Source: Burkholderiaceae bacterium
GTDB taxonomy: Bacteria; Pseudomonadota; Gammaproteobacteria; Burkholderiales; Burkholderiaceae_E
Direction: 5' to 3'
Assembly (NCBI GenBank): GCA_032027205.1
Contig: JAVSMN010000001.1
Span: 1,439,300 to 1,503,299, forward strand
Length of the DNA: 64,000 bases
Both the position numbers and the translations under genes were made by a program. Under the pieces are notes generated by a model. It had not been told where the DNA came from. It ran no database searches and saw only the letters and a list, made by a program, of their open reading frames with translations. Shown here in pieces: positions 7,524 to 55,465 of this stretch (position 1 is its first letter; every line of letters starts with the position of its first letter).

Positions 7524-8596
7524 CGCAGCGTTCGCGCGATCGCCCGCGCGCGCAATCGACCGACGATGCCGGTCGGGAAGTAGTAAACCGAAAGCACGAA
7601 CAGCAGCCCGAGCCACAGCAGCCAGCGATCGGGCGAGAAGAGCGCCGCTGCGAGCGGCACCGGCTCCAGTGCGCCCGAAACGAGCCGCATCAGGTCCTGC
7701 AGGTAGCTCTGCGCGAGCACGAAGATCGCGCTGCCGATCACCGCGCCGTACATCGTGCCCATGCCGCCGATGACGACGATCAGCAGGATGTCGACCATGA
7801 TCTCGAAAGACAGCGACGTGTCGGGACCGTTGTAGCGCAGCCAGATCGCGAGCAATGCGCCGGCGAGCGTGGCGAACAGCGCGCCGAGCACCGATGACAC
7901 CGTGCGGAAGACCACGGTGCGGTAGCCGATCGCCTCGGCGCGGAAGTCGTTCTCGCGGATCGCCTGCAGCACGCGACCGAAAGGCGAGTTGACGATGCGC
8001 AGCAGCACGAGGAACAGCACGAGAACCGAGAAGAACACCAGGTAGTAGGTGAGGAAGCGCCCGTCGATCGACGCGCCGAGTACCGTGTCCTCGAACAGCT
8101 CGAACGAAGGCTGCAGCACCGCCGGCACCTTGAAGCTCAGGCCGTCCTCGCCGCCGGTGAATTCGGACAGCTGCGAGGCGAGCGTCTGGAACGCGGCCGC
8201 GACGGCGAGCGTGATCATCGCGAAGAAGATCGCCTTCACGCGCAGGCTGAACAGGCCGATCGCGAACGCGAGCAGCGCCGACAGCACGAGCGCGAGGACG
8301 ACGCCGACGACGATCGCATCCCAGCCCGGACCCATGCGCGTGCTCGCGATGGCCACGCCGTAGGCGCCGATGCCGAAGAACATCGTGTGCGCGAACGAGA
8401 CGATGCCGGTGTAGCCGAGCAGCAGGTCGTAGCTCGCCACCAGCAGCACGAAGACGAGCACCTTCGCTGCCACCGACAACGAACGCGCGCCGGGGAACAC
8501 GAACGGCACGAGCAGCAGCGCGAGCACGATCACGATCAGGATCGCCGCCGCGAAGCGGCTGCGCGGATAGTCGCCCGAGAGCAGCGTGCGGATCAT
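7520..8596 (-). CDS. Branched-chain amino acid-type ABC transporter permease (LivM-type)
   Basis: 358-aa polytopic membrane protein with LivM-like sequence, in an operon with a LivH-type permease and two ATPases. Confidence 0.9.
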   Translation of the reverse strand: MIRTLLSGDYPRSRFAAAILIVIVLALLLVPFVFPGARSLSVAAKVLVFVLLVASYDLLLGYTGIVSFAHTMFFGIGAYGVAIASTRMGPGWDAIVVGVVLALVLSALLAFAIGLFSLRVKAIFFAMITLAVAAAFQTLASQLSEFTGGEDGLSFKVPAVLQPSFELFEDTVLGASIDGRFLTYYLVFFSVLVLFLVLLRIVNSPFGRVLQAIRENDFRAEAIGYRTVVFRTVSSVLGALFATLAGALLAIWLRYNGPDTSLSFEIMVDILLIVVIGGMGTMYGAVIGSAIFVLAQSYLQDLMRLVSGALEPVPLAAALFSPDRWLLWLGLLFVLSVYYFPTGIVGRLRARAIARTLR

Positions 8597-8609: not shown

Positions 8610-9596
8610 TCAGCGCCGGGCCACCGGGAACAGTCCCTGCGGCCGCCACAGCAGGATCGCCATCATCAGCAGGATGTTCGAGAAGAGCGCCACCTTCGGC
8701 GCGAGAAAGCCGGTGTAGTTCGCCATCAGGCCGACCAGCAGCGCGCCGACGAAGCAGCCGGTGGTCGAGCCCAGCCCGCCGATGATGATGACGATGAAGA
8801 TCAGGATGTTCACCTGCGCGCCCATCTGCGGCACGACGCTTTGCTGGTACAGCCCCCACATCACGCCGCCGAGGCCGGCGAGCGCCGAGCCGACGACGAA
8901 CACGCCGACGAACAGCCGCCGGATGCGGTAGCCGAGACTCTCGACCATCTCGCGGTCCTGCACGCCGGCACGGATCAGCAGGCCGATCTTCGTGCGCTCG
9001 AGCACGAAGAGCAGCGCAAGGAACACGGCGAGGCCGACGACGACCGCGAGCAGCCGGTATTTCTCGATCGCCGCGTCGCCGACGAGGTAGGCGCCGCGCA
9101 GCGCCGCCGGCAGCGGCAGCGGGATCTGCTGCGGTCCCCAGATGACCTTGATCAGCTCCTCGCCGATGATCATCCCGCCCATCGTGATCAGGACCTGCTT
9201 CAGGTGATTGCCGTAGACGGGCCGCACGATCAACCGCTCGAACACGACACCGATCGCCGCGGCGACCGCCATCGCCGCGAGCATGGCCAGGCCGATCGCG
9301 CCGAGGTTCGCCGCGAGCGACGCCGATTCGGTCCAGGCGCCCAGCGGCGCGAGCACCGACATCGCGACGAAGGCGCCGAATGCGATGAACACGCCGTGGC
9401 CGAAGTTCAGCACGTCCATCAGGCCGAAGACGAGCGTGAGTCCCGAGGCGATGATGAAGACGATCATTCCCATCGCCAGCCCCGCGACCGTCAGCGTGGC
9501 CCAGGTCGGCACGCTGCCGATCAGCGGCAGCGCGACGAGCGCGAGAACCGCGACGAGCGCGTACGGGAGCAGCTGTCGCGTACTCGTCGGGTTCAT
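8610..9596 (-). CDS. Branched-chain amino acid-type ABC transporter permease (LivH-type)
   Basis: 328-aa polytopic membrane protein with LivH-like sequence. Confidence 0.9.
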   Translation of the reverse strand: MNPTSTRQLLPYALVAVLALVALPLIGSVPTWATLTVAGLAMGMIVFIIASGLTLVFGLMDVLNFGHGVFIAFGAFVAMSVLAPLGAWTESASLAANLGAIGLAMLAAMAVAAAIGVVFERLIVRPVYGNHLKQVLITMGGMIIGEELIKVIWGPQQIPLPLPAALRGAYLVGDAAIEKYRLLAVVVGLAVFLALLFVLERTKIGLLIRAGVQDREMVESLGYRIRRLFVGVFVVGSALAGLGGVMWGLYQQSVVPQMGAQVNILIFIVIIIGGLGSTTGCFVGALLVGLMANYTGFLAPKVALFSNILLMMAILLWRPQGLFPVARR

Positions 9597-10369
9597 TGAT
9601 GCGCTCCGAGGGACAGGCCGAGCAGGCGCTGCTGCAGCGACTCGTCCGCGGCGAGCGCCGCCATCGAGCCGCGATGCACGATGCGTCCGTCCTCCATCAC
9701 TGCGACGGTATCGCCGAGTTCGCGCGCGAACGCGAAGTTCTGCTCGACGAGCAGGATCGTCGCGCCCGCGGCCTTCAGCTGCCGGAACGCTTCGAGCATG
9801 TTGCGGATGATCGACGGCGCCAGGCCCTTGCTCGGCTCGTCGATCAGGATCAGCTCACGCGGCTCGACGATCGCGCGCGAGACGGCAAGCATCTGCTTCT
9901 GCCCGCCCGACAGCAGCCCCGCCGGGTGGTCGCGGAACTTCTTCATCGCCGGGAACAGCTCCTCGATCCAGCGCAGCCGCTCGGCGTCGATCGCGTCGGC
10001 GTTGCGCGCACCGCGCGCAGCGAGCAGCAGGTTCTCGCGCACCGTGAGGTCCGAGAAGACGCCCATGTTCTCGGGGACGTAGGCGATGCCCAGCCGCGCG
10101 ATGTCGGGCGTCGCGCGTCGCGTGATGTCGGTGCCGCCGAAGCGCACGCTGCCGGCGCTCGCCGTCCACATTCCCATGATCGTGCGCAGCGTCGTCGTCT
10201 TCCCGGCGCCGTTGCGCCCGAGCAGCAGCGTCGTCTGCCCCGCGGGAACGTCGAGGTCGACGCCGTGCAGGATGTGATACGCGCCGATGTGCGTGTGCAC
10301 GCCGGCCAGCGAGAGCAGCGCTGCGGTCGAGCGCCCGCTCGCCGACGAAAGCGCAACGCCCGAGGACAT
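9593..10369 (-). CDS. ABC transporter ATP-binding protein (LivF-type)
   Basis: Trimmed to MSSGVALSS.. Shows Walker A GRNGAGKTT, LSGGQKQ signature and Walker B ILIDEP. Confidence 0.9.
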   Translation of the reverse strand: MSSGVALSSASGRSTAALLSLAGVHTHIGAYHILHGVDLDVPAGQTTLLLGRNGAGKTTTLRTIMGMWTASAGSVRFGGTDITRRATPDIARLGIAYVPENMGVFSDLTVRENLLLAARGARNADAIDAERLRWIEELFPAMKKFRDHPAGLLSGGQKQMLAVSRAIVEPRELILIDEPSKGLAPSIIRNMLEAFRQLKAAGATILLVEQNFAFARELGDTVAVMEDGRIVHRGSMAALAADESLQQRLLGLSLGAHQ

Positions 10370-10389: not shown

Positions 10390-11166
10390 TCACGAGGCGA
10401 CCTCCTCTTCCTGGTCGACGCTGATGCCGAGATACGCCTGCTGGACCACCGGCGACGCGATCACCTCGGCCGGCGCGCCGTCGGCGGCCAGGCGACCGTT
10501 GTGCAGCACGATGATGCGGTCGCTGAGCTCGCGAACGACGTCCATCTTGTGCTCGACGAGCAGGATCGTTTTCGTCGAGTCGAGCTTGATGTCGCGAATG
10601 AGGTCGAGGATCACCGGCACCTCGTCGACGCTCATCCCGGCGGTCGGCTCGTCGAAGAGGAACACGGCGGGCTCGAGCGCGAGCAGGATCCCGACCTCGA
10701 GCTTGCGCTGGTCGCCGTGCGGCAGGCTGCTCGCCGGCGCATCGCGACGCGCGGTAAGCGCGATGCGCTCGAGGATTGCCTCGGCCTCGCCGATCAGCGC
10801 CCTGTGGTCCGACCAGATCGACCACAGGTTCAACCCCATCCCGCGCCGCGCCTGGATCGCCAGCCGCACGTTCTCGAGCACCGTGAGGTTCGGAAAGAGG
10901 TTCGTCAGCTGGAACGCGCGCCCAAGCCCGCGCTTCGTGCGCTCCGGCGCCCCGAGCGCGCTGACGTCGTCGCCGCCAACGAGCACGCGGCCGGCGCTCG
11001 CCTTCAACTGCCCCGAGATCAGGTTGAAGTAGGTCGTCTTGCCCGCGCCGTTCGGCCCGACAATCGCGGTGAGCGTGCCGGGGCGAAACGCGCACGAGAC
11101 GGAGTCGACGGCCACGTGCCCACCGAACCGAATCGTGAGCTCGCGCGTTTCGAGGGAGGGAGTCAT
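10390..11166 (-). CDS. ABC transporter ATP-binding protein (LivG-type)
   Basis: Trimmed to MTPSLETRELTIRFGG.. Shows Walker A GPNGAGKTT and Walker B FLFDEP. Confidence 0.9.
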   Translation of the reverse strand: MTPSLETRELTIRFGGHVAVDSVSCAFRPGTLTAIVGPNGAGKTTYFNLISGQLKASAGRVLVGGDDVSALGAPERTKRGLGRAFQLTNLFPNLTVLENVRLAIQARRGMGLNLWSIWSDHRALIGEAEAILERIALTARRDAPASSLPHGDQRKLEVGILLALEPAVFLFDEPTAGMSVDEVPVILDLIRDIKLDSTKTILLVEHKMDVVRELSDRIIVLHNGRLAADGAPAEVIASPVVQQAYLGISVDQEEEVAS

Positions 11167-45539: not shown

Positions 45540-48374
<2,835 letters not shown>

Positions 48375-48426
48375 AAGCTGGAGTAGCCTGCCTCCGGAGC
48401 CCCTTCAAAGAGGGCATGGAGGAGCG

Positions 48427-49538
48427 ATGAAGAAGTCGAGGTATACGGAGGAGCAGATCGCCTATGTGCTGCGTCAGGCCGAATCGGGTACGCCGGTGTC
48501 TGACGTGTGCCGCAGCACCGGGATCTCGGAGGCGACCTTCTACAACTGGAAAAAGAAGTACGCGAACCTGGGTGTCACGGAATTGCGCCGGCTCAAGCAG
48601 CTCGAAGACGAGAACGCACGCCTGAAGCGCCTGGTGGCCGATCTGACGCTGGACAAACACATCCTGAACGAGGTGATCCGAAAAAAGCTCTGACGCCGAC
48701 GCGGCGCCGAGAGCTCACTCGATGGATCCACGAACGGTTCCAGGTGAGCTTGACGCGAGCGTGTCGGCTGGGTGGGGTCAGCCGGGCCGGTTGGTACCGG
48801 CGCAGCACCGCACGGGATCACAGTGGGCTGCAGATGCGAATTCGCGATCTCGCGCTCAGCCGGCCACGCTTCGGCTATCGGCGCATCCATGTGCTGCTGC
48901 GTCGCGAGGGCTGGCTGATCAACCTGAAACGCGTACATCGGCTCTACCGCCTGGAAGGGCTGCAGGTGCGAATGCGGGTCAGGCGACGCAAGCGGCTCAG
49001 CCTGCATCGCGGCCCCGCGCCCGCAGCGCGGGCCCTTGATGAACGGTGGAGCATGGATTTCGTCCACGATCAGCTGGTCGACGGCAGGACGTTTCGTGTG
49101 CTGACCGTCGTCGACAATTGGAGTCGTGAGAGCGTATTGCTGGAGGCCGGGTTCCGGCTCACCGGCCAGAGCGTCGTGGCGGCACTGGCGAGAGTGGCAA
49201 CCCGACGCAAGCTTCCGCGTTCGATCACCGTCGACCATGGCACCGAGTTCACCTCGCGGGCTTTGGATGAATGGGCGTGGGCGAGCGGAGTACAGCTGGA
49301 CTTCACGCGACCCGGCAGGCCCACCGATAATGGGCTGTGCGAGTCGTTCAATGGTCGGCTGCGCGATGAATGCCTGAACGTCACCGAGTTTGAATCGATT
49401 GCCCATGCGCATCAAAGGCTGGAGGCTTGGCGCACCGACTACAACGAGCAACGTCCACATGGCGCACTCGGTCATCTGACCCCGAGTGAATACGCCCGAT
49501 CAGGTCGGACCCATGCTTCGGAAGGCGAGTCACCCTAG
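48427..49538 (+). CDS. IS3-family transposase OrfA (48427-48693) / OrfB (to 49538), with an A6G slippery heptamer at 48681-48687
   Basis: OrfA is MKKSRYTEEQIAYVLRQAESGTPVSDVCRSTGISEATFYNWKKKY.. The -1 frame after AAAAAAG continues KKALTPTRRRELTRWIHERF.. with DDE motifs ..WSMDFV..TVDHGTEF..ESFNGRLRDECLN.. Confidence 0.85.
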
Positions 49539-49622
49539 TTCAGAACCGTCTACAAAATGGGGCAACGTCATCGTCAAAGCGGACTCTAATCCCGGGCGGG
49601 ACTGATTCAGGGGAGCAGGTCA

Positions 49623-49806
49623 GGTAAAGACAATCTGCGTTAACGCCACCATCAAGGGGGTCGAAATACGGGATCTCATACCCGCTACCCATCTCTATTC
49701 GGAGACTTCTAACGAAAGCCGAAACCGGTGCGACGTGGTCGTCTTCAATTGCTGCGAGACGCTGCTGGCGCGCTTCGGGTGATCTGAGAATCTTCGGCGC
49801 GCCCAT
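49623..49806 (-). pseudogene. Cassette ORF truncated by IS insertion (possibly a uracil-DNA-glycosylase-superfamily-like N-terminus)
   Basis: MGAPKILRSPEARQQRLAAIEDDHVAPVSAFVRSLRIEMGSGYEIPYFDPLDGGVNADCLYL, then runs into the IS terminus. The FDPxDGG motif recalled from UDG-like proteins is weak evidence. Confidence 0.4.
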
Positions 49807-49821
49807 GTCTTCGCTTATGTC

Positions 49822-49920
49822 GACTAACGTTCAAGCTCAGCGGCCGGCAAAAGAGGCGCGGCTTTTGCGCAAGCAAAAGGCGTGACGCATTTGACGGTCC
49901 GCTGCAGCGAAATGTTAGGC
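49822..49920 (-). other. attC recombination site (99 bp, divergent type)
   Basis: GACTAACgttcaagctcagcggcc...gacggtccgctgcagcgaaatGTTAGGC. The central arms are complementary (ggcaaaagaggcgcggcttttgcgcaagcaaaagg). Confidence 0.75.
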
Positions 49921-49930
49921 CGCACCATCA

Positions 49931-50353
49931 TCATTTCTGTCCGCGAATCCACAGCGGGTGAATGTACTGACCATGGATGGAACGTAGCTCTGGCTCATTC
50001 GTGTGTCGGAGCTGGCCACTCGCTGAATCGTGCCGAAAGCGACTGTAGGCCTCGCTGTCAGCCGCAAGAATCTCAAGAGCACCGCGACGAACCCGCCAAG
50101 TCGATTCATTGGCATTGCGACCTTCTCCGATGTCACCGTTATCCAGGAACGTGAGCACTTTCGACTGGCCGGTCATCGGATTGAATACGAAGTTAAATCG
50201 CCTCCCATTCAGAAGCAGCTTCCCAAGCTTGCGCGAAGAAAGCCACCATCTCAATGGCCCAGCAAGCCAAGCGACCGCTGCCAGGAAAGCCGTTGCCAAG
50301 ATAGTGGCAATGATCTGCCCCGCGATCGAGCTAAGTAAGGCGTCTGGATCCAT
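49931..50353 (-). CDS. Cassette 3 ORF: small N-terminally membrane-anchored protein, no recognisable domain
   Basis: 140 aa with a TM helix IAGQIIATILATAFLAAVAWLAG followed by a ~100-aa soluble part. Low GC. Confidence 0.6.
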   Translation of the reverse strand: MDPDALLSSIAGQIIATILATAFLAAVAWLAGPLRWWLSSRKLGKLLLNGRRFNFVFNPMTGQSKVLTFLDNGDIGEGRNANESTWRVRRGALEILAADSEAYSRFRHDSASGQLRHTNEPELRSIHGQYIHPLWIRGQK

Positions 50354-50371
50354 CGGCGACCTTGCGCTGCG

Positions 50372-50429
50372 GCCTAACGTTAGAATTCACCGGCTGCCAA
50401 AGGCAGTCCGGTGCGACGACCGGTTAGGT
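50372..50429 (-). other. attC recombination site (58 bp, canonical short type)
   Basis: GCCTAACgttagaattcaccggctgccaaaggcagtccggtgcgacgaccgGTTAGGT. Has perfect RYYYAAC and GTTRRRY ends and complementary inner arms. Confidence 0.8.
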
Positions 50430-50439
50430 CGGGGCATGC

Positions 50440-50922
50440 CTATGAGATTTTCCGAATGGAGACCACCGCCGACTCAATTTTCAGGGTATCTCGGTCGAAC
50501 CACGTGGCCTGACCGTCCATAGCGAGTCGATCTGGGCTGACAATGAGCTGGATAAGGCCGTTGCCTGTTGTATTTCCTTTCTCTCCAACCTTTTCGTACG
50601 AACCGAATACGAGGTTGTGCTTGATTCGTAAGTCGTAGAGAAACCTCCGCTTCTCAGACTTCGTCTCCCCTTCTCCGGACACGCTGCTTCCAAGATGACG
50701 AAGCCGTAGACATTCGAGCTCCTCTCGAAGTGACTTCGGGTCTATAGGATCAGGTTCCTTGAACGTGTACTCCCACGTCCCGGTTAGATCGAAACGATCC
50801 GGATTGACGAAGTGAAAAAGCCAGCCGAGCAAGTTGCCCGAGACTCTTGCGAATGGCGGTGACATGTAGTTTGCGACGAGGCTCGCTACGACCCCCAGGG
50901 CAAAACCGGTCAGTATCTCCAT
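50440..50922 (-). CDS. Cassette 2 ORF: small N-terminally membrane-anchored protein, no recognisable domain
   Basis: Trimmed to MEILTGFALGVVASLVANYMS.. 160 aa. The ORF-track N-terminal extension would run into the attC. Low GC. Confidence 0.6.
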   Translation of the reverse strand: MEILTGFALGVVASLVANYMSPPFARVSGNLLGWLFHFVNPDRFDLTGTWEYTFKEPDPIDPKSLREELECLRLRHLGSSVSGEGETKSEKRRFLYDLRIKHNLVFGSYEKVGEKGNTTGNGLIQLIVSPDRLAMDGQATWFDRDTLKIESAVVSIRKIS

Positions 50923-50943
50923 AAGCTTCCCATTGGTGTTACG

Positions 50944-51021
50944 CCCTAACGTTTGACATGAGCGGCAGTTGGAGGCAAGCAAAGCTTGCCGGAAGCTGTC
51001 CGCTCGATGGAGGGGTTAGAG
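50944..51021 (-). other. attC recombination site (78 bp, 'house' family)
   Basis: CCCTAACgtttgacatgagcggc...gtccgctcgatggagggGTTAGAG. Confidence 0.75.
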
Positions 51022-51036
51022 CGCGTTGATCTGAAC

Positions 51037-51948
51037 TCACGCATTCATCGGCCCCCAAGAGTGCAGGCCGCGGACCGAGAGAACTGGTTGGAGCGGAGGA
51101 GCTTCGCTTTCTCCAAGCTTTTGCCAATGATTCTGGACAGCGACGGGGTCGAGCGCACCGAGTGTGAATGCATTCGTGATAACGAAACCTGTCTGCTCAT
51201 CGCGTAGACCGCTGAGCTGCTCTATCGGCACATGACCATAGTACCTCTGGCGTGTGACGTGAAGCGAAACAGTTAGAGCGACAGGAATGAGCATCCCGTA
51301 ACTGTTATCGATCTTGGTGACGATATCGGGAATAAGCGGAACCTGCTCGTGGACGCCGGGATCGGATGGGTACGTGCCTTCGTTCCATCGCTGGGTAGCG
51401 ATGTCGTAGATGACACCGAGGGGTTGCCCATCCTCAGAGAAAACGGGTAGCTCAAAAAACCGCTGCGGGAGACTAAACGGTACAGGTGCGGAACAAGAAA
51501 TCTCGAAACCGATACGGGTGGCTCGAAAGTCGCACACGACTGGCAACGCTAGTCGGACCTGCCATTTGTGAGAGCCTGTGTCCGCAGGACTGTAGAGATC
51601 AATATGCAGCTTTTTAGCGCGCTTCTTGGCAGACTTTGTGAAGCCAGAGGGGCAAACAAGAGCGCCCTTGTGAGCGCCAATGTCTTGGACAAGGCCATGA
51701 AACTCTTCGACACCTTTCACATCAACGGGTGACCCATAGTCTTTGCAATCGAGTGCAACTCGCATCGGATACTGACCGATGTTCTGCTCAACCAGAACAT
51801 CGATCTGACGGGTTGTCTCGCTCAGCAGACCGGGCACCTTCGCGTTGTGTGTGACTTTGGCGTGCGGTGCGAGTTGCTTCTGGATGGATGCGACTAACAG
51901 CTCAAGCTGTTGCCACTCAGGTTTCTGTGCGTTCACCGTTTTGCGCAA
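51037..51948 (-). CDS. Cassette 1 ORF: PD-(D/E)xK restriction-endonuclease-like (Mrr_cat-type) N-terminal domain fused to an unknown ~175-aa C-terminal domain
   Basis: 303 aa with a TTG start (alternative GTG at 51936). ..RQIDVLVEQNIGQYPMRVALDCKDYGSPVDVKGVEEFHGLVQDIGAHKGALVCPSGFTKSAKKRAKK.. fits the D..(D/E)xK core and layout of Mrr-type nucleases. A spot count gives 53% GC. Confidence 0.65.
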   Translation of the reverse strand: MRKTVNAQKPEWQQLELLVASIQKQLAPHAKVTHNAKVPGLLSETTRQIDVLVEQNIGQYPMRVALDCKDYGSPVDVKGVEEFHGLVQDIGAHKGALVCPSGFTKSAKKRAKKLHIDLYSPADTGSHKWQVRLALPVVCDFRATRIGFEISCSAPVPFSLPQRFFELPVFSEDGQPLGVIYDIATQRWNEGTYPSDPGVHEQVPLIPDIVTKIDNSYGMLIPVALTVSLHVTRQRYYGHVPIEQLSGLRDEQTGFVITNAFTLGALDPVAVQNHWQKLGESEAPPLQPVLSVRGLHSWGPMNA

Positions 51949-51975
51949 AGGGATACAAGCCGTTGTACGCCGCGG

Positions 51976-51994
51976 GTTAGCACGCGCTCTAACG
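51976..51994 (-). other. Putative attI / first-cassette junction
   Basis: On the plus strand this reads GTTAGCACGCGCTCTAAC|G. CTCTAAC sits where the other cassettes have their RYYYAA|C boundary. No integrase-binding repeats were identified. Confidence 0.3.
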
Positions 51995-52349
51995 TGTTTT
52001 GGAGCGATCCCGCACCGCGATTCCGTCCCCCCGCACGGCGATAACCTGTGTGGTCACGTGACCGCAAGTGCTTCTTGCCATTGACGAAAATCCCCGCGCT
52101 CACCACGAACGGCCGACGTAACCGGGCCTGCAAGCACCGCTGGACCGACGACGGTGCCCGGTCGCACCGATATAAACCGGCGCCGACGAAATAACCGTAC
52201 GCGTCCGCACGCGCCCGAACGACGCTCACGCTACGTCTTTCGCGAAGTGCCCCGCAGGCGACACGAATAACAACTTCGCAACGCCCGCTGGCGATTGCAC
52301 GACTCCACCCGTTCTTATTAGTCCGTTCGCACGATGGTCGCAATCCTTT

Positions 52350-52365
52350 CTGTATGAAGATACAG
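52350..52365. promoter_or_regulatory. LexA (SOS) box CTGT-N8-ACAG immediately upstream of intI
   Basis: Read directly as CTGTATGAAGATACAG, ending 6 nt before the ATG at 52371. Confidence 0.7.
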
Positions 52366-52370
52366 CGATC

Positions 52371-52801
52371 ATGCAACCGCCGTCCACTCATTCGATCGCC
52401 GTGAGCCGACCGACGGCCGGTCGCGAACATGGCGAGGCCCAACCTCCGCGTCTGATCTCGAGCTGCGTGAGCGCATTCGCTACCTTCATTACAGCCTTCG
52501 CACCGAGCAGGCATATATCTATTGGGTTCGCGCGTTCGTGCGCTACAGCGGCATGCGCCATCCTCGGGAACTCGGGCAGGGCGATGTCGAACGCTTTCTC
52601 TCGTTTCTCGCGAACGAGCGCCACGTCTCGGTCTCGACACACAAGCAGGCGTTGTGCGCGTTGCTCTTTCTCTACCGGGAAGTGCTGGGGCACTAACTGC
52701 CGTGGATGGAGAAACTCGGCCGCCCGAAGGCCCGCGCGCGGGTTCCAGCGCCCAGCCCGCTCGACGGTCTCCCGGTCGACGTGCCGATCCCTGCGGACTA
52801 A
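52371..52801 (+). pseudogene. intI: Integron integrase intI, inactivated (frameshift near codon 28, in-frame TAA at 52694-52696, 3' two-thirds deleted)
   Basis: The ATG frame gives [28 protein letters not shown]. The -1 frame from 52454 gives [101 protein letters not shown]. Homology is lost beyond about 52750. Confidence 0.8.
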
Positions 52802-52951
52802 TGCTCGATGCGCGAGCGTCCTGTCCGTTCGGCGGCTCGCCCGCGCTTCGAATCGCCCGGCGAGGATGCGCGAGAATCCTCCCGTGCGCGCCGGTCCCCG
52901 CGCGCAGGTTCCCTACGCAGTCCGCCCGCAACCTCCTCCCCGGAGTCCGAC

Positions 52952-53314
52952 ATGGGTTGGTTCTCGAAGAAGCAGGAAGACGACTTCTTCCTCGCTACCG
53001 TCGCGCCCGACGACGATGTCGCGCGCGTCGGGGAATACCTCGGCGTCGTGAACGGCGAGGCGATCATCGGTGCACACATCCTGCGCGATCTTTTCTCGTC
53101 GGTACGCGACATCGTCGGCGGCCGCGCGGGCGGCTACGAGCGGGCGCTGTCCGGCGCGCGCGACGCCGCGCTGGGCGACATGATCGCCGCGGCGCGCGAA
53201 CGCGGTGCCGACGGCGTCGTCGGCATCGATTTCGACTACGAGGTTCTCGGCGAGACCAACGGGATGATGATGGTGTCGGTCAGCGGGACGGCGGTGAAGA
53301 TGGCGAAGCGCTAA
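52952..53314 (+). CDS. YbjQ (UPF0145) family protein
   Basis: Trimmed to [12 protein letters not shown].. ..[41 protein letters not shown].. is characteristic of the family. Confidence 0.8.
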
Positions 53315-53342
53315 AGGCGCGCTGCGTGAGCCCGAGGTGCCC

Positions 53343-53960
53343 TCACGACGTAGCCCACAGCGGCCGGCCGATCGGAGCGCACAGCACGATGAATGCCGCG
53401 ACATTCACGACCACCGTTCCCCAGAAGACCGCGCGGAACTCCGCCTTCGCCGACTTGTGCCGAAGCATCTGCTGCGCGAGGAGCGCGCCGGGCCATCCAC
53501 CGGCGAGCGAGAGCGCGTGCAGCTTTCTCTCAGAGATGCGCCATCCACCGCTCCGGGCCAACGACTTGTCCATGGCGTAGGCGGCGAAGGTCACGACGCT
53601 GGCTACGAGGTAACCCCACGCAAGCCACGACGGAGGCCGCCACAACACGCCGACAGCGACGTACACGACGAGAAACGCCGGAATCGCGAACAGCGTCGCG
53701 CCACCGTATCGAACCGCCGAGTTCTCCGGTCCCCTGACTCGCAGCCGTGCCGGTCGCACCGGCTGCACTTTGCAGGCGCGCTTCTTTCCCTGCGGGCTGA
53801 GCTCCACTTCGAAGGAAACCCGCTGTCCGGGCGTCGGCCGTGCCGCGCCTCGAGCGAAGGCCTTCACGTGGACGAAGACCTCCTGCCCGCCCAGGGTCGG
53901 CTCGATGAAGCCGAAACCACGCTCGTCGTTCCAGGAGCGGATGACACCTTCGAATCGCAT
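53343..53960 (-). CDS. Cold-shock-domain plus DUF1294 membrane protein
   Basis: An N-terminal CSD (..WNDERGFGFIEP..GQEVFVHV..), followed by TM segments and ..YAMDKSLARSGGWRISE.. Confidence 0.8.
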   Translation of the reverse strand: MRFEGVIRSWNDERGFGFIEPTLGGQEVFVHVKAFARGAARPTPGQRVSFEVELSPQGKKRACKVQPVRPARLRVRGPENSAVRYGGATLFAIPAFLVVYVAVGVLWRPPSWLAWGYLVASVVTFAAYAMDKSLARSGGWRISERKLHALSLAGGWPGALLAQQMLRHKSAKAEFRAVFWGTVVVNVAAFIVLCAPIGRPLWATS

Positions 53961-54097
53961 GGGCGCAGGCTACGGTATCGGGAGACGCAATTGGGGCGCA
54001 GGCGGATGGCCGCGGGATGGCGTCCGACCGGCGCCTCGATGAATCCCGGCACGGGCCGCCCGATAATGCTCACCGCCTGCATCTGCCGCGCTCGCCC

Positions 54098-55465
54098 ATG
54101 TCTGCCCTCCCCGCTGCGCCCCTGCGAAACCGCGTCTACGAAGTCCTCACCGGCGACGACGTAGACCGCGTCTGTCTCGACATTCCCGAGGAGAGCTGCC
54201 GCGAGCAACCGCGCAACTTCCTGCTGCACGTGTCGGCACTGTCGGCCTCGAAGACCGCCGACGGCCTGCTCGACCCGAAGATCGTGCTCGCCTGGCTGGT
54301 CGGTGCGGTCGGCGCGCCGACGTTCATGCTCGGGTTGCTCGTGCCGATCCGCGAGGCAGGGGCGCTGCTGCCGCAACTGGTGATCGCGGCGGCGATCCGC
54401 TCGATGCCGATTCGCAAGTGGGTGTGGGCGATCGGCGCCACCGTGCAGGGCGTGTGCATGATCGGGATGGCGCTCGCTGCGCTGCTGCTCGACGGCGCTG
54501 CGGCGGGCTGGGCGATCCTCGCGCTGCTCGTGTCGCTGTCGCTCGCGCGCAGCGCCGGCTCGATCGCACATAAAGACGTGCTCGGCAAGACGATCCGCAA
54601 GGCGACGCGTGGCACCGTGGCCGGCACCGCGGGAACGCTGTCGGCGGTGCTCGTGCTCGTGTTCGGCGTGCTGCTCGGCACGGGCATCATCGAGCGCTCG
54701 ATCACGACGATCGCCGCGGCGCTCGTCGTCGGCGGCGTGCTGTGGATCGTCGCAGCACTGCTCTTCGCATCGCTTTCCGAGGAGCCCGGCGCCACCGAGG
54801 GCGGCGGCAACGCGCTCGCCGTCGCGATCCGGCAGTTCGGCCTGCTGCGCGAGGACCCGCAGCTCGTTCGCTTCATCGCGGTGCGTTGCCTGCTGATGGC
54901 GACGGCGCTCGCGCCGCCCTTCGTCGTCGCGCTGGGCGAGCGCGAGTCGGCCGATGCGGGTACGGGGACGCTCGGTCCCTTCGTGATCGCCGCTGCGCTG
55001 GCGGCCATCTCGAGCAGCTACGTCTGGGGGCGCATGTCCGACGTGTCGAGCCGGCGCGTGCTCGTCGTCGCCGCCGGCATGGGCGCGGCGTGCCTCGTCC
55101 TCGCGGCAGCGATCGGCACGGGGATGGGCGAACCCTTCGGCATGGACGCCAACTCGATGTTCGCGCTGCCCGCGCTCGTCTTCGTCGCGACCATCGCCGA
55201 CCAGGGCGTGAAGCTCGGTCGCACGACGCACGTCGTCGACATGGCGGGCACGACCGACCGGGGCGCGTACACGGCGCTGACGAACACGATCGGCGGCATC
55301 GCGATGCTCGGCGCCGGCGTCTTCGGTTTCGTCGACCAGCGCTTCGGCGCGTTGACGGTGCTCGTGCTGCTCGCGGCGATGTGCGTGATCGCGATGCGGC
55401 TCGCGGCAGGGCTCGAGGAGGTACAGCGAATCGCGCCGTCTGGAACCGCTGCGGTCGAGCGGTAG
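54098..55465 (+). CDS. MFS transporter
   Basis: Trimmed to MSALPAAPLRNR.. About 455 aa with roughly 12 hydrophobic segments. Confidence 0.75.
   Translation: MSALPAAPLRNRVYEVLTGDDVDRVCLDIPEESCREQPRNFLLHVSALSASKTADGLLDPKIVLAWLVGAVGAPTFMLGLLVPIREAGALLPQLVIAAAIRSMPIRKWVWAIGATVQGVCMIGMALAALLLDGAAAGWAILALLVSLSLARSAGSIAHKDVLGKTIRKATRGTVAGTAGTLSAVLVLVFGVLLGTGIIERSITTIAAALVVGGVLWIVAALLFASLSEEPGATEGGGNALAVAIRQFGLLREDPQLVRFIAVRCLLMATALAPPFVVALGERESADAGTGTLGPFVIAAALAAISSSYVWGRMSDVSSRRVLVVAAGMGAACLVLAAAIGTGMGEPFGMDANSMFALPALVFVATIADQGVKLGRTTHVVDMAGTTDRGAYTALTNTIGGIAMLGAGVFGFVDQRFGALTVLVLLAAMCVIAMRLAAGLEEVQRIAPSGTAAVER

Follow-up and report, generated by a model that had tools for sequence, protein, structure and literature searches.

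The window analysed here is a 64,000-nt stretch of contig JAVSMN010000001.1 (positions 1,439,300 to 1,503,299) from the Burkholderiaceae bacterium assembly GCA_032027205.1, and in it we examined a minus-strand gene (51037..51948) for a predicted two-domain nuclease, located at the head of a decayed chromosomal integron. The open reading frame (ORF) is uninterrupted and encodes 303 amino acids (aa) from a TTG codon at 51948 to a TGA stop codon (51037-51039). An alternative GTG start at 51936, 4 codons downstream of the TTG, gives a 299-aa protein, which is the version found in the NCBI record (P0001, 100% identity, titled 'MAG: restriction endonuclease [Burkholderiaceae bacterium]'). The gene recurs with the same neighbours in three independent assemblies, and the encoded protein is 100% identical in all three. 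A first search returned 473 full-length homologues (E<1e-3), the best 120 of which showed 52-100% identity at ~80-100% query coverage; at the sequence level, this confirmed that the gene is not a chance ORF. Its GC content (54.6%) is close to that of the entire cassette array (55%), while the flanks are at about 69% (right flank, 69.6%). The low GC relative to the host, which an earlier note on this DNA had pointed out, was reproduced line by line (53.3% at 51241-51300 vs 70.0% at 54241-54300).

The recombination core GTTAGAGC, which forms the attI-cassette junction (51985..51992, minus strand), was found 36 nt 5′ of the TTG start. At the other end, the attC of the nuclease cassette (50944..51021, minus strand) begins 16 nt past the stop codon and was identified by an inverted-repeat and folding search, with an R″ box (CTCTAAC), paired L boxes, an R′ box (GTTAGGG, at 50950-50944 on the minus strand) and a folding energy of -33.1 kcal/mol. 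On the far side of the core, tblastn with the full-length IntI of the homologue locus L039 detected an intI pseudogene remnant (52469..52750) on the plus strand, divergent from the cassettes, with 41% identity to residues 157-250 of the query over 94 aa. Translation of its frame revealed an in-frame stop (52694-52696), soon after which the homology ends, so that the catalytic C-terminal two thirds are gone. Since intI is a truncated pseudogene, the integron platform is inactive in cis.

The attC scan covered the whole window. Because the heuristic finder gave many GCAAC...GTTGC-type false positives in high-GC DNA, only YTAAC...GTTA-type sites adjoining a gene were accepted. No attC was found between the GTTAGAGC core and the intI remnant. 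Three consecutive minus-strand attC sites (51021-50944, 50429-50372 and 49920-49822), each closing one ORF, were the sole sites of the accepted type in the 64-kb window. The core, the attC, the divergent intI and the lack of any attC between core and intI therefore make 50950-51992 the first cassette of a decayed chromosomal integron, and these two positions, which the earlier note had given for the cassette, are its exact borders, from the GTTAGAGC side to the R′ box. The nuclease gene is thus a bona fide integron cassette, with its own attC, a same-strand array behind it and attI and intI adjacent to it. As had been claimed, the first cassette after attI holds one gene alone, and its 303-aa ORF contains all the peptides quoted at the time.

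Two further observations concern the attI side of this cassette. The junction at 51975-51992 (minus strand) reads GTTAGAGCGCGTGCTAAC, an imperfect palindrome (GTTAG...CTAAC) within which falls the in-frame TAA stop upstream of the nuclease ORF; this palindrome may be either the vestige of a minimal attC or a hybrid (attI x attC). In addition, an opposite-strand ORF of 332 aa (51933-52931, minus strand) is publicly annotated over the intI remnant (L001, 609-1607); it has no Pfam match and is probably spurious, lying in high-GC DNA.

The N-terminal part of the protein, residues 11-118 (51595..51918, minus strand), is covered by the Pfam family Mrr_cat (PF04471) with E=1.1e-11 and 45.3 bits vs a cut-off of 21, and the same profile matches 62/62 family members in our alignment, in which identity goes down to 27%. 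From this alignment, the catalytic set proved to be conserved, with E16 in 60/62, D50 in 61/62, D/E67 in 59/62 and K69 in 60/62 members. All four residues are intact here (E16, 51901-51903; D50, 51799-51801; D67, 51748-51750; K69, 51742-51744; minus strand), in agreement with the D...(D/E)xK core and the Mrr_cat assignment proposed earlier. An AlphaFold2 (AF2) model built from 30 homologues had a mean predicted local distance difference test score (pLDDT) of 87 and a full-length predicted template modelling score (pTM) of 0.61. Its core follows the order alpha-beta-beta-beta-alpha-beta (H11-26, E31-39, E46-57, E60-68, H77-90 and E94-98).

When this model was searched with Foldseek against the PDB, the matches (~110-125 columns) included AF1548 (1y88, 9e-7), MspJI (4e-4), AspBHI (6e-4), and also Can2/Cdn1 and FokI. 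The PD-(D/E)xK fold, for which a structural check had been suggested, was thus present both in the AF2 model and among the Foldseek matches. By profile, motif and predicted fold, the N-terminal domain is a member of the Mrr_cat PD-(D/E)xK nucleases with predicted cleavage activity, and it appears to be an active-looking nuclease rather than an inactivated restriction endonuclease-like domain. It is basic, with an isoelectric point (pI) of 9.3. It shares its fold with Mrr, PF04471 and AF1548, and keeps the E...D...(D/E)xK residues. In Escherichia coli Mrr, a winged-helix domain that binds DNA stands at the N-terminus and the nuclease at the C-terminus; the window protein has its nuclease at the N-terminus, followed by an unrelated accessory domain.

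The remaining residues, 121-303 (51040..51588, minus strand), form a C-terminal family-specific domain. The full-length Foldseek search was dominated by the nuclease domain; the C-terminal domain was also modelled and searched separately. Its own model was confident (~121-303; pLDDT 86.6, pTM 0.74) and mostly beta, with two short helices. Foldseek gave nothing credible against either the PDB (best E=0.68, probability ~0.01-0.04, TM-score ~0.1) or the BFVD viral structures (best E=0.15); the GFP barrels and ligand-gated channels among the matches were rejected as noise (probability <=0.04). With Pfam at E up to 10, no family recurred on this domain across the 62 members, and no match was found in NCBIfam, PHROGs, PADLOC or the PDB by phmmer and profile searches. 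Accordingly, the description of this domain as unrecognisable stood, and the separate model (121-303) resembled no known family, housekeeping or other, in the PDB or BFVD.

We then asked in which proteins the C-terminal domain occurs. With phmmer, the domain alone had 214 matches (E<1e-3) in 1.84 billion representatives, the matches being representatives at 50% identity. Those of full length have 288-357 aa, and in them the domain begins at about residue 104-167, while the shorter ones resemble fragments. Mrr_cat precedes the domain in 10/10 distant members checked, one of which has an extra SEC-C motif, and a profile search gave the same picture of Mrr_cat plus C-terminal domain. Besides fragments and this single SEC-C-tagged variant, the only other architecture was a 36-residue match in a 4799-aa protein, which is probably spurious. 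As these searches show only Mrr_cat joined to it, the C-terminal domain is an obligate companion of the nuclease and not a shuffled module. The earlier note had called it sensor-like; since no second kind of effector was seen to carry it, it does not qualify as a modular sensor.

In composition, the C-terminal domain is acidic (pI 5.4, net charge -6), as in the family, where the mean net charge is -10.3 (A1) or -7.4 (A3). It evolves faster than the N-terminal domain (column entropy 2.6 vs 1.7 bits), and its best-conserved positions are W129 (62/62), W188, G198, G247, W275 and P288. The acidity may argue for a regulatory or autoinhibitory role over DNA reading.

The family is distributed across phyla, with 32 genome loci in Pseudomonadota (alpha, beta and gamma classes), Nitrospirota, Desulfobacterota and Bdellovibrionota, and in most homologue loci the GC of the gene is below that of the locus. 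A canonical attC was detected directly 3′ of the gene in L006, L007, L008, L010, L012, L013, L037, L039, L042 and L043, and in such attC-bearing loci the stop codon usually lies within the R″ box (ACT-TAA-C). At least 11 of the 39 distinct loci, the window included, are therefore integron cassettes, and L004, L009 and L019 are possible further attC-flanked copies. The sites were counted by inspection; an attC covariance model was dropped, the MAFFT alignment of 12 attC being poor in the variable loop. Four Gammaproteobacteria of different families carry a near-identical attC (ACTTAACAAGGCC...CGCTGAAGGCAACGTTA) behind the gene, with the stop codon inside the R″ box (L006 ~1588-1660, L008 1950-2015, L010 ~10903-10970 and L039 ~8903-8975). 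Since the attC is near-identical across these loci, the gene and its attC probably moved as one unit.

In 3/4 loci with intI in view, namely the window, Reinekea (L010) and a metagenome contig (L042), the gene is the first cassette, while in Candidatus Thiodiazotropha (L039) the nuclease is a later cassette of the array. GTTAAG cores were found ~30 nt before the start in L010 (~9970-10001) and L042 (~7971-8001), and the core of the window 36 nt before it. The attI-proximal position in three of four loci suggests recent or recurrent capture, in a sample too small for a statistical test. The integron of L039 (482-8909) encodes a 467-aa IntI with a long N-terminal extension, and the array ahead of its nuclease carries a HEPN RiboL-PSP, an IS91 transposase, Phd/ParE, a group II intron reverse transcriptase and a GNAT acetyltransferase.

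A different setting was seen in two Enterobacter species (L011/L015, 9600-13000), where the homologue is located in a small island beside miaE together with unannotated 282-aa and 271-aa ORFs and a serine resolvase. As this island has no attC, the gene has moved by another route in Enterobacter. Some neighbours of other non-cassette copies are likewise resolvases or integrases. A search of 72,556 plasmids and 50,697 phage records gave only matches at the level of the nuclease domain and no full-length protein, and no family member was present in the 5,426 complete E. coli genomes.

We also examined the genes around the copies for a recurring partner. By Pfam and PADLOC, the 133 nearest ORFs of 23 loci without an obvious attC share no common family, the most frequent Pfam family (HTH_3) being present in three ORFs, and an all-against-all BLAST of these ORFs gave two unrelated pairs only. 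A [DNS]PP[YFW] or C5-methyltransferase motif was found in 0/133 of them, and no methyltransferase family was among the neighbour families listed (25 of 109). Type II restriction-modification was hence rejected for the one-ORF cassette. Defence genes do occur among the neighbours, namely BrxL, PD-T4-6, AriA, AbiLi, HEPN_AbiU2, PLDc_2 (a PLD nuclease) and HEPN RiboL-PSP.

Taken together, we regard the nuclease gene as a plausible one-gene anti-phage defence spread by integrons across phyla. The defence role would rest on context, that is, on the integron cassettes, the sporadic distribution, the low GC, the nearby defence genes and the absence of a methyltransferase. If so, the protein would defend its host against phages or mobile DNA entering the cell, and the nuclease would need to be held in check, as the host chromosome would have no methylation protection. 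Because host methylation cannot be relied on, the nuclease must either recognise non-self DNA specifically or be held in an inactive state. DNA reading seems the less likely of the two, as the C-terminal domain is acidic and lacks similarity to SRA, PUA or winged-helix domains, and we therefore tentatively favour, at somewhat short of an even chance, a solitary defence nuclease in which the C-terminal domain is an intramolecular gate or sensor that frees the basic nuclease on an infection cue. The acidic domain would occlude or mis-orient the nuclease domain until a cue, perhaps a phage protein, an unusual DNA or a nucleotide, releases it and DNA is cut. That the domain is in addition a new fold, acting as built-in infection sensor and autoinhibitor at once, is rather doubtful.

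Effectors held off by an attached regulatory domain, with no partner gene, are known from the fused toxin-antitoxin CapRel and the Shedu nuclease SduA. The likeness of the window protein to these two is conceptual, as no sequence or fold relationship was found.

Several points weigh against a self-gated defence nuclease. PADLOC 2.0, one of the programs proposed for the locus in the earlier note, has no model for the family, and its only response to the window protein was a weak, partial match to PDC-S02. This match (24 bits, E=4e-6) covers residues 56-116 of the window protein only and is common to 52/62 family members. We rejected membership in PDC-S02, as 61 residues align, at model positions 244-304 of 346, and the C-terminal domain is left uncovered; from the place of the alignment, the nuclease should be C-terminal in that family. 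The defence signal of the neighbourhoods is anecdotal and uncontrolled, and the C-terminal domain, unlike many defence sensors, was never joined to another effector. The argument from acidity to gating is indirect, and the inter-domain geometry of the AF2 model, to judge from its full-length pTM, is uncertain. The local integron is also decayed, with its intI pseudogene and insertion sequences, and no promoter was detected, so that the good expression which the earlier note had expected of a promoter-proximal first cassette is only presumptive here.

The closest parallels come from recent work on integrons. Work from 2024-2025 showed that integron cassettes form a reservoir of compact genes against phages, among which nuclease fusions are numerous. 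Darracq et al. (10.1101/2024.07.02.601686) described Epona and Divona of Vibrio, integron cassettes with Mrr_cat fusions that protect against phages, and Kieffer et al. a putative restriction-endonuclease integron cassette, Brc142. Like Epona and Divona, the gene of the window is a one-gene integron cassette that combines an Mrr-type nuclease with a second, unusual domain and has no methyltransferase. It differs in the partner domain: Epona has a holin-like one with two transmembrane helices and Divona has DUF4365 plus a crr6 domain, whereas the window protein has a soluble, acidic, beta-rich domain without detectable relatives. In a hydropathy check, every 19-residue segment of the 303-aa protein had a Kyte-Doolittle mean <=1.6. 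Membership in Epona was thus rejected, as the protein has no hydrophobic segment that could span a membrane and its C-terminal domain is predicted to be soluble. The concept of a single-gene nuclease-fusion cassette is established; what is new is the orphan acidic domain, in a family that is large and cross-phylum.

The alternative nearest to a self-gated nuclease is a solitary Type IV-like endonuclease, in which the C-terminal domain would be a new DNA reader of modified bases or non-self features and no activation step would be needed. The build of the protein, a nuclease plus one domain in ~300 aa, parallels MspJI, AspBHI and PvuRts1I, which are stand-alone enzymes of ~300-450 aa with a PD-(D/E)xK (Mrr-like) nuclease, one further domain and no methyltransferase. 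The nuclease domains of MspJI and AspBHI are among the top structural matches of the N-terminal domain, none of the neighbours has a methyltransferase motif, and the conserved W129, W188 and W275 could make a base-binding pocket. In addition, 11/62 family members weakly match PADLOC mREase_IV models. However, these matches are weak (best 3e-5) and none was obtained for the window protein itself. The known enzymes read DNA by an SRA-like beta-barrel, whereas the C-terminal domain here has a net charge (-6; family mean -7 to -10) that is atypical of a DNA-binding domain, and Foldseek gave no SRA, PUA, winged-helix or B3-like match (best PDB E=0.68). The nuclease-first order also differs from that of MspJI and AspBHI. 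A recognisable Type IV enzyme was rejected, for want of a reader domain and of an mREase_IV match, and a Type IV-like enzyme with a new kind of reader appears unlikely.

Improbable to a similar degree is a function outside defence. The protein might, for instance, stabilise the cassette array through addiction in the manner of a fused toxin-antitoxin, act as a competition factor, or assist as an accessory nuclease in repair or recombination. Integron arrays are rich in toxin-antitoxin cassettes, with ParE/Phd in the same arrays as the nuclease in L039 and L043, and PD-(D/E)xK nucleases act in repair and recombination too. Moreover, the family is recognised by no defence model, and many of its non-integron copies lie among ordinary metabolic genes. 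Against this, the sporadic, low-GC, horizontally spread family is unlike a repair function, the neighbourhoods show no recurrent gene for repair or recombination, the finding of the gene next to attI in several loci suggests that it was captured recently and under selection, and cassette Mrr_cat fusions have proven anti-phage activity (10.1101/2024.07.02.601686).

Least likely is that the intact gene is a silent passenger, functionally irrelevant in a dead integron as a promoterless cassette: intI is truncated with an in-frame stop, IS3 elements cut the array and no sigma-70-like promoter was found in 50900-52800, but that scan was a crude consensus test in an organism of 67% GC, while the ORF is uninterrupted, its catalytic residues are all intact and the protein is 100% identical in the three independent assemblies.

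Should the gene prove to be a defence gene, the family would add a widespread member, not annotated as defence at present, with 473 homologues and 214 clusters at 50% identity. Its C-terminal domain, without relatives in Pfam, the PDB or BFVD, could point to a novel mechanism by which a PD-(D/E)xK nuclease is gated or targeted. If the domain does act as both sensor and autoinhibitor, the protein would be among the smallest single-polypeptide abortive or restriction nucleases, and integrons would have moved the gene with its attC across several phyla, with repeated capture at the attI-proximal position, presumed to be the best expressed. With one gene of 0.9 kb and obvious active-site controls, the hypothesis is cheap to test, and if the function is not defence, the family would serve as a clear case against guilt-by-association reasoning in integrons.

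Behind the nuclease cassette, the array continues with two orphan ORFs, identified from the ORF list and the attC search. Cassette 2 (50372..50943, minus strand) consists of the ORF 50440-50982, of 180 aa or 160 aa from an ATG, and the attC 50429-50372, and cassette 3 (49822..50371, minus strand) of a 140-aa ORF (49931-50353) and the attC 49920-49822. Both proteins have an N-terminal hydrophobic helix, and neither had a significant match in Pfam, NCBIfam, PADLOC or PHROGs. In the homologue loci whose neighbours were examined, different genes adjoin the nuclease gene, which suggests that these two ORFs are independent of it.

A fourth cassette, with an 88-aa ORF (49540-49806), is truncated by an IS3-family insertion sequence (48427..49538, plus strand), which ends the array. 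This element was recognised by its orfA/orfB organisation and by translations of the HTH and DDE (rve)-type transposase, with the Pfam families HTH_Tnp_1 and rve in the sister assembly L002. A second IS3-family element (~47165-48330, minus strand) lies back to back with it, and in L002 an IS21 IstB-type gene adjoins the IS3 element. An Rfam search of 46000-54000 returned no RNA family. On the intI side, a YbjQ/UPF0145-type gene (52950-53314, plus strand; Pfam YbjQ_1 on the same gene in L001) abuts the intI remnant, and at this gene the GC returns to a host-like level; it may mark the place at which the integron entered the chromosome.

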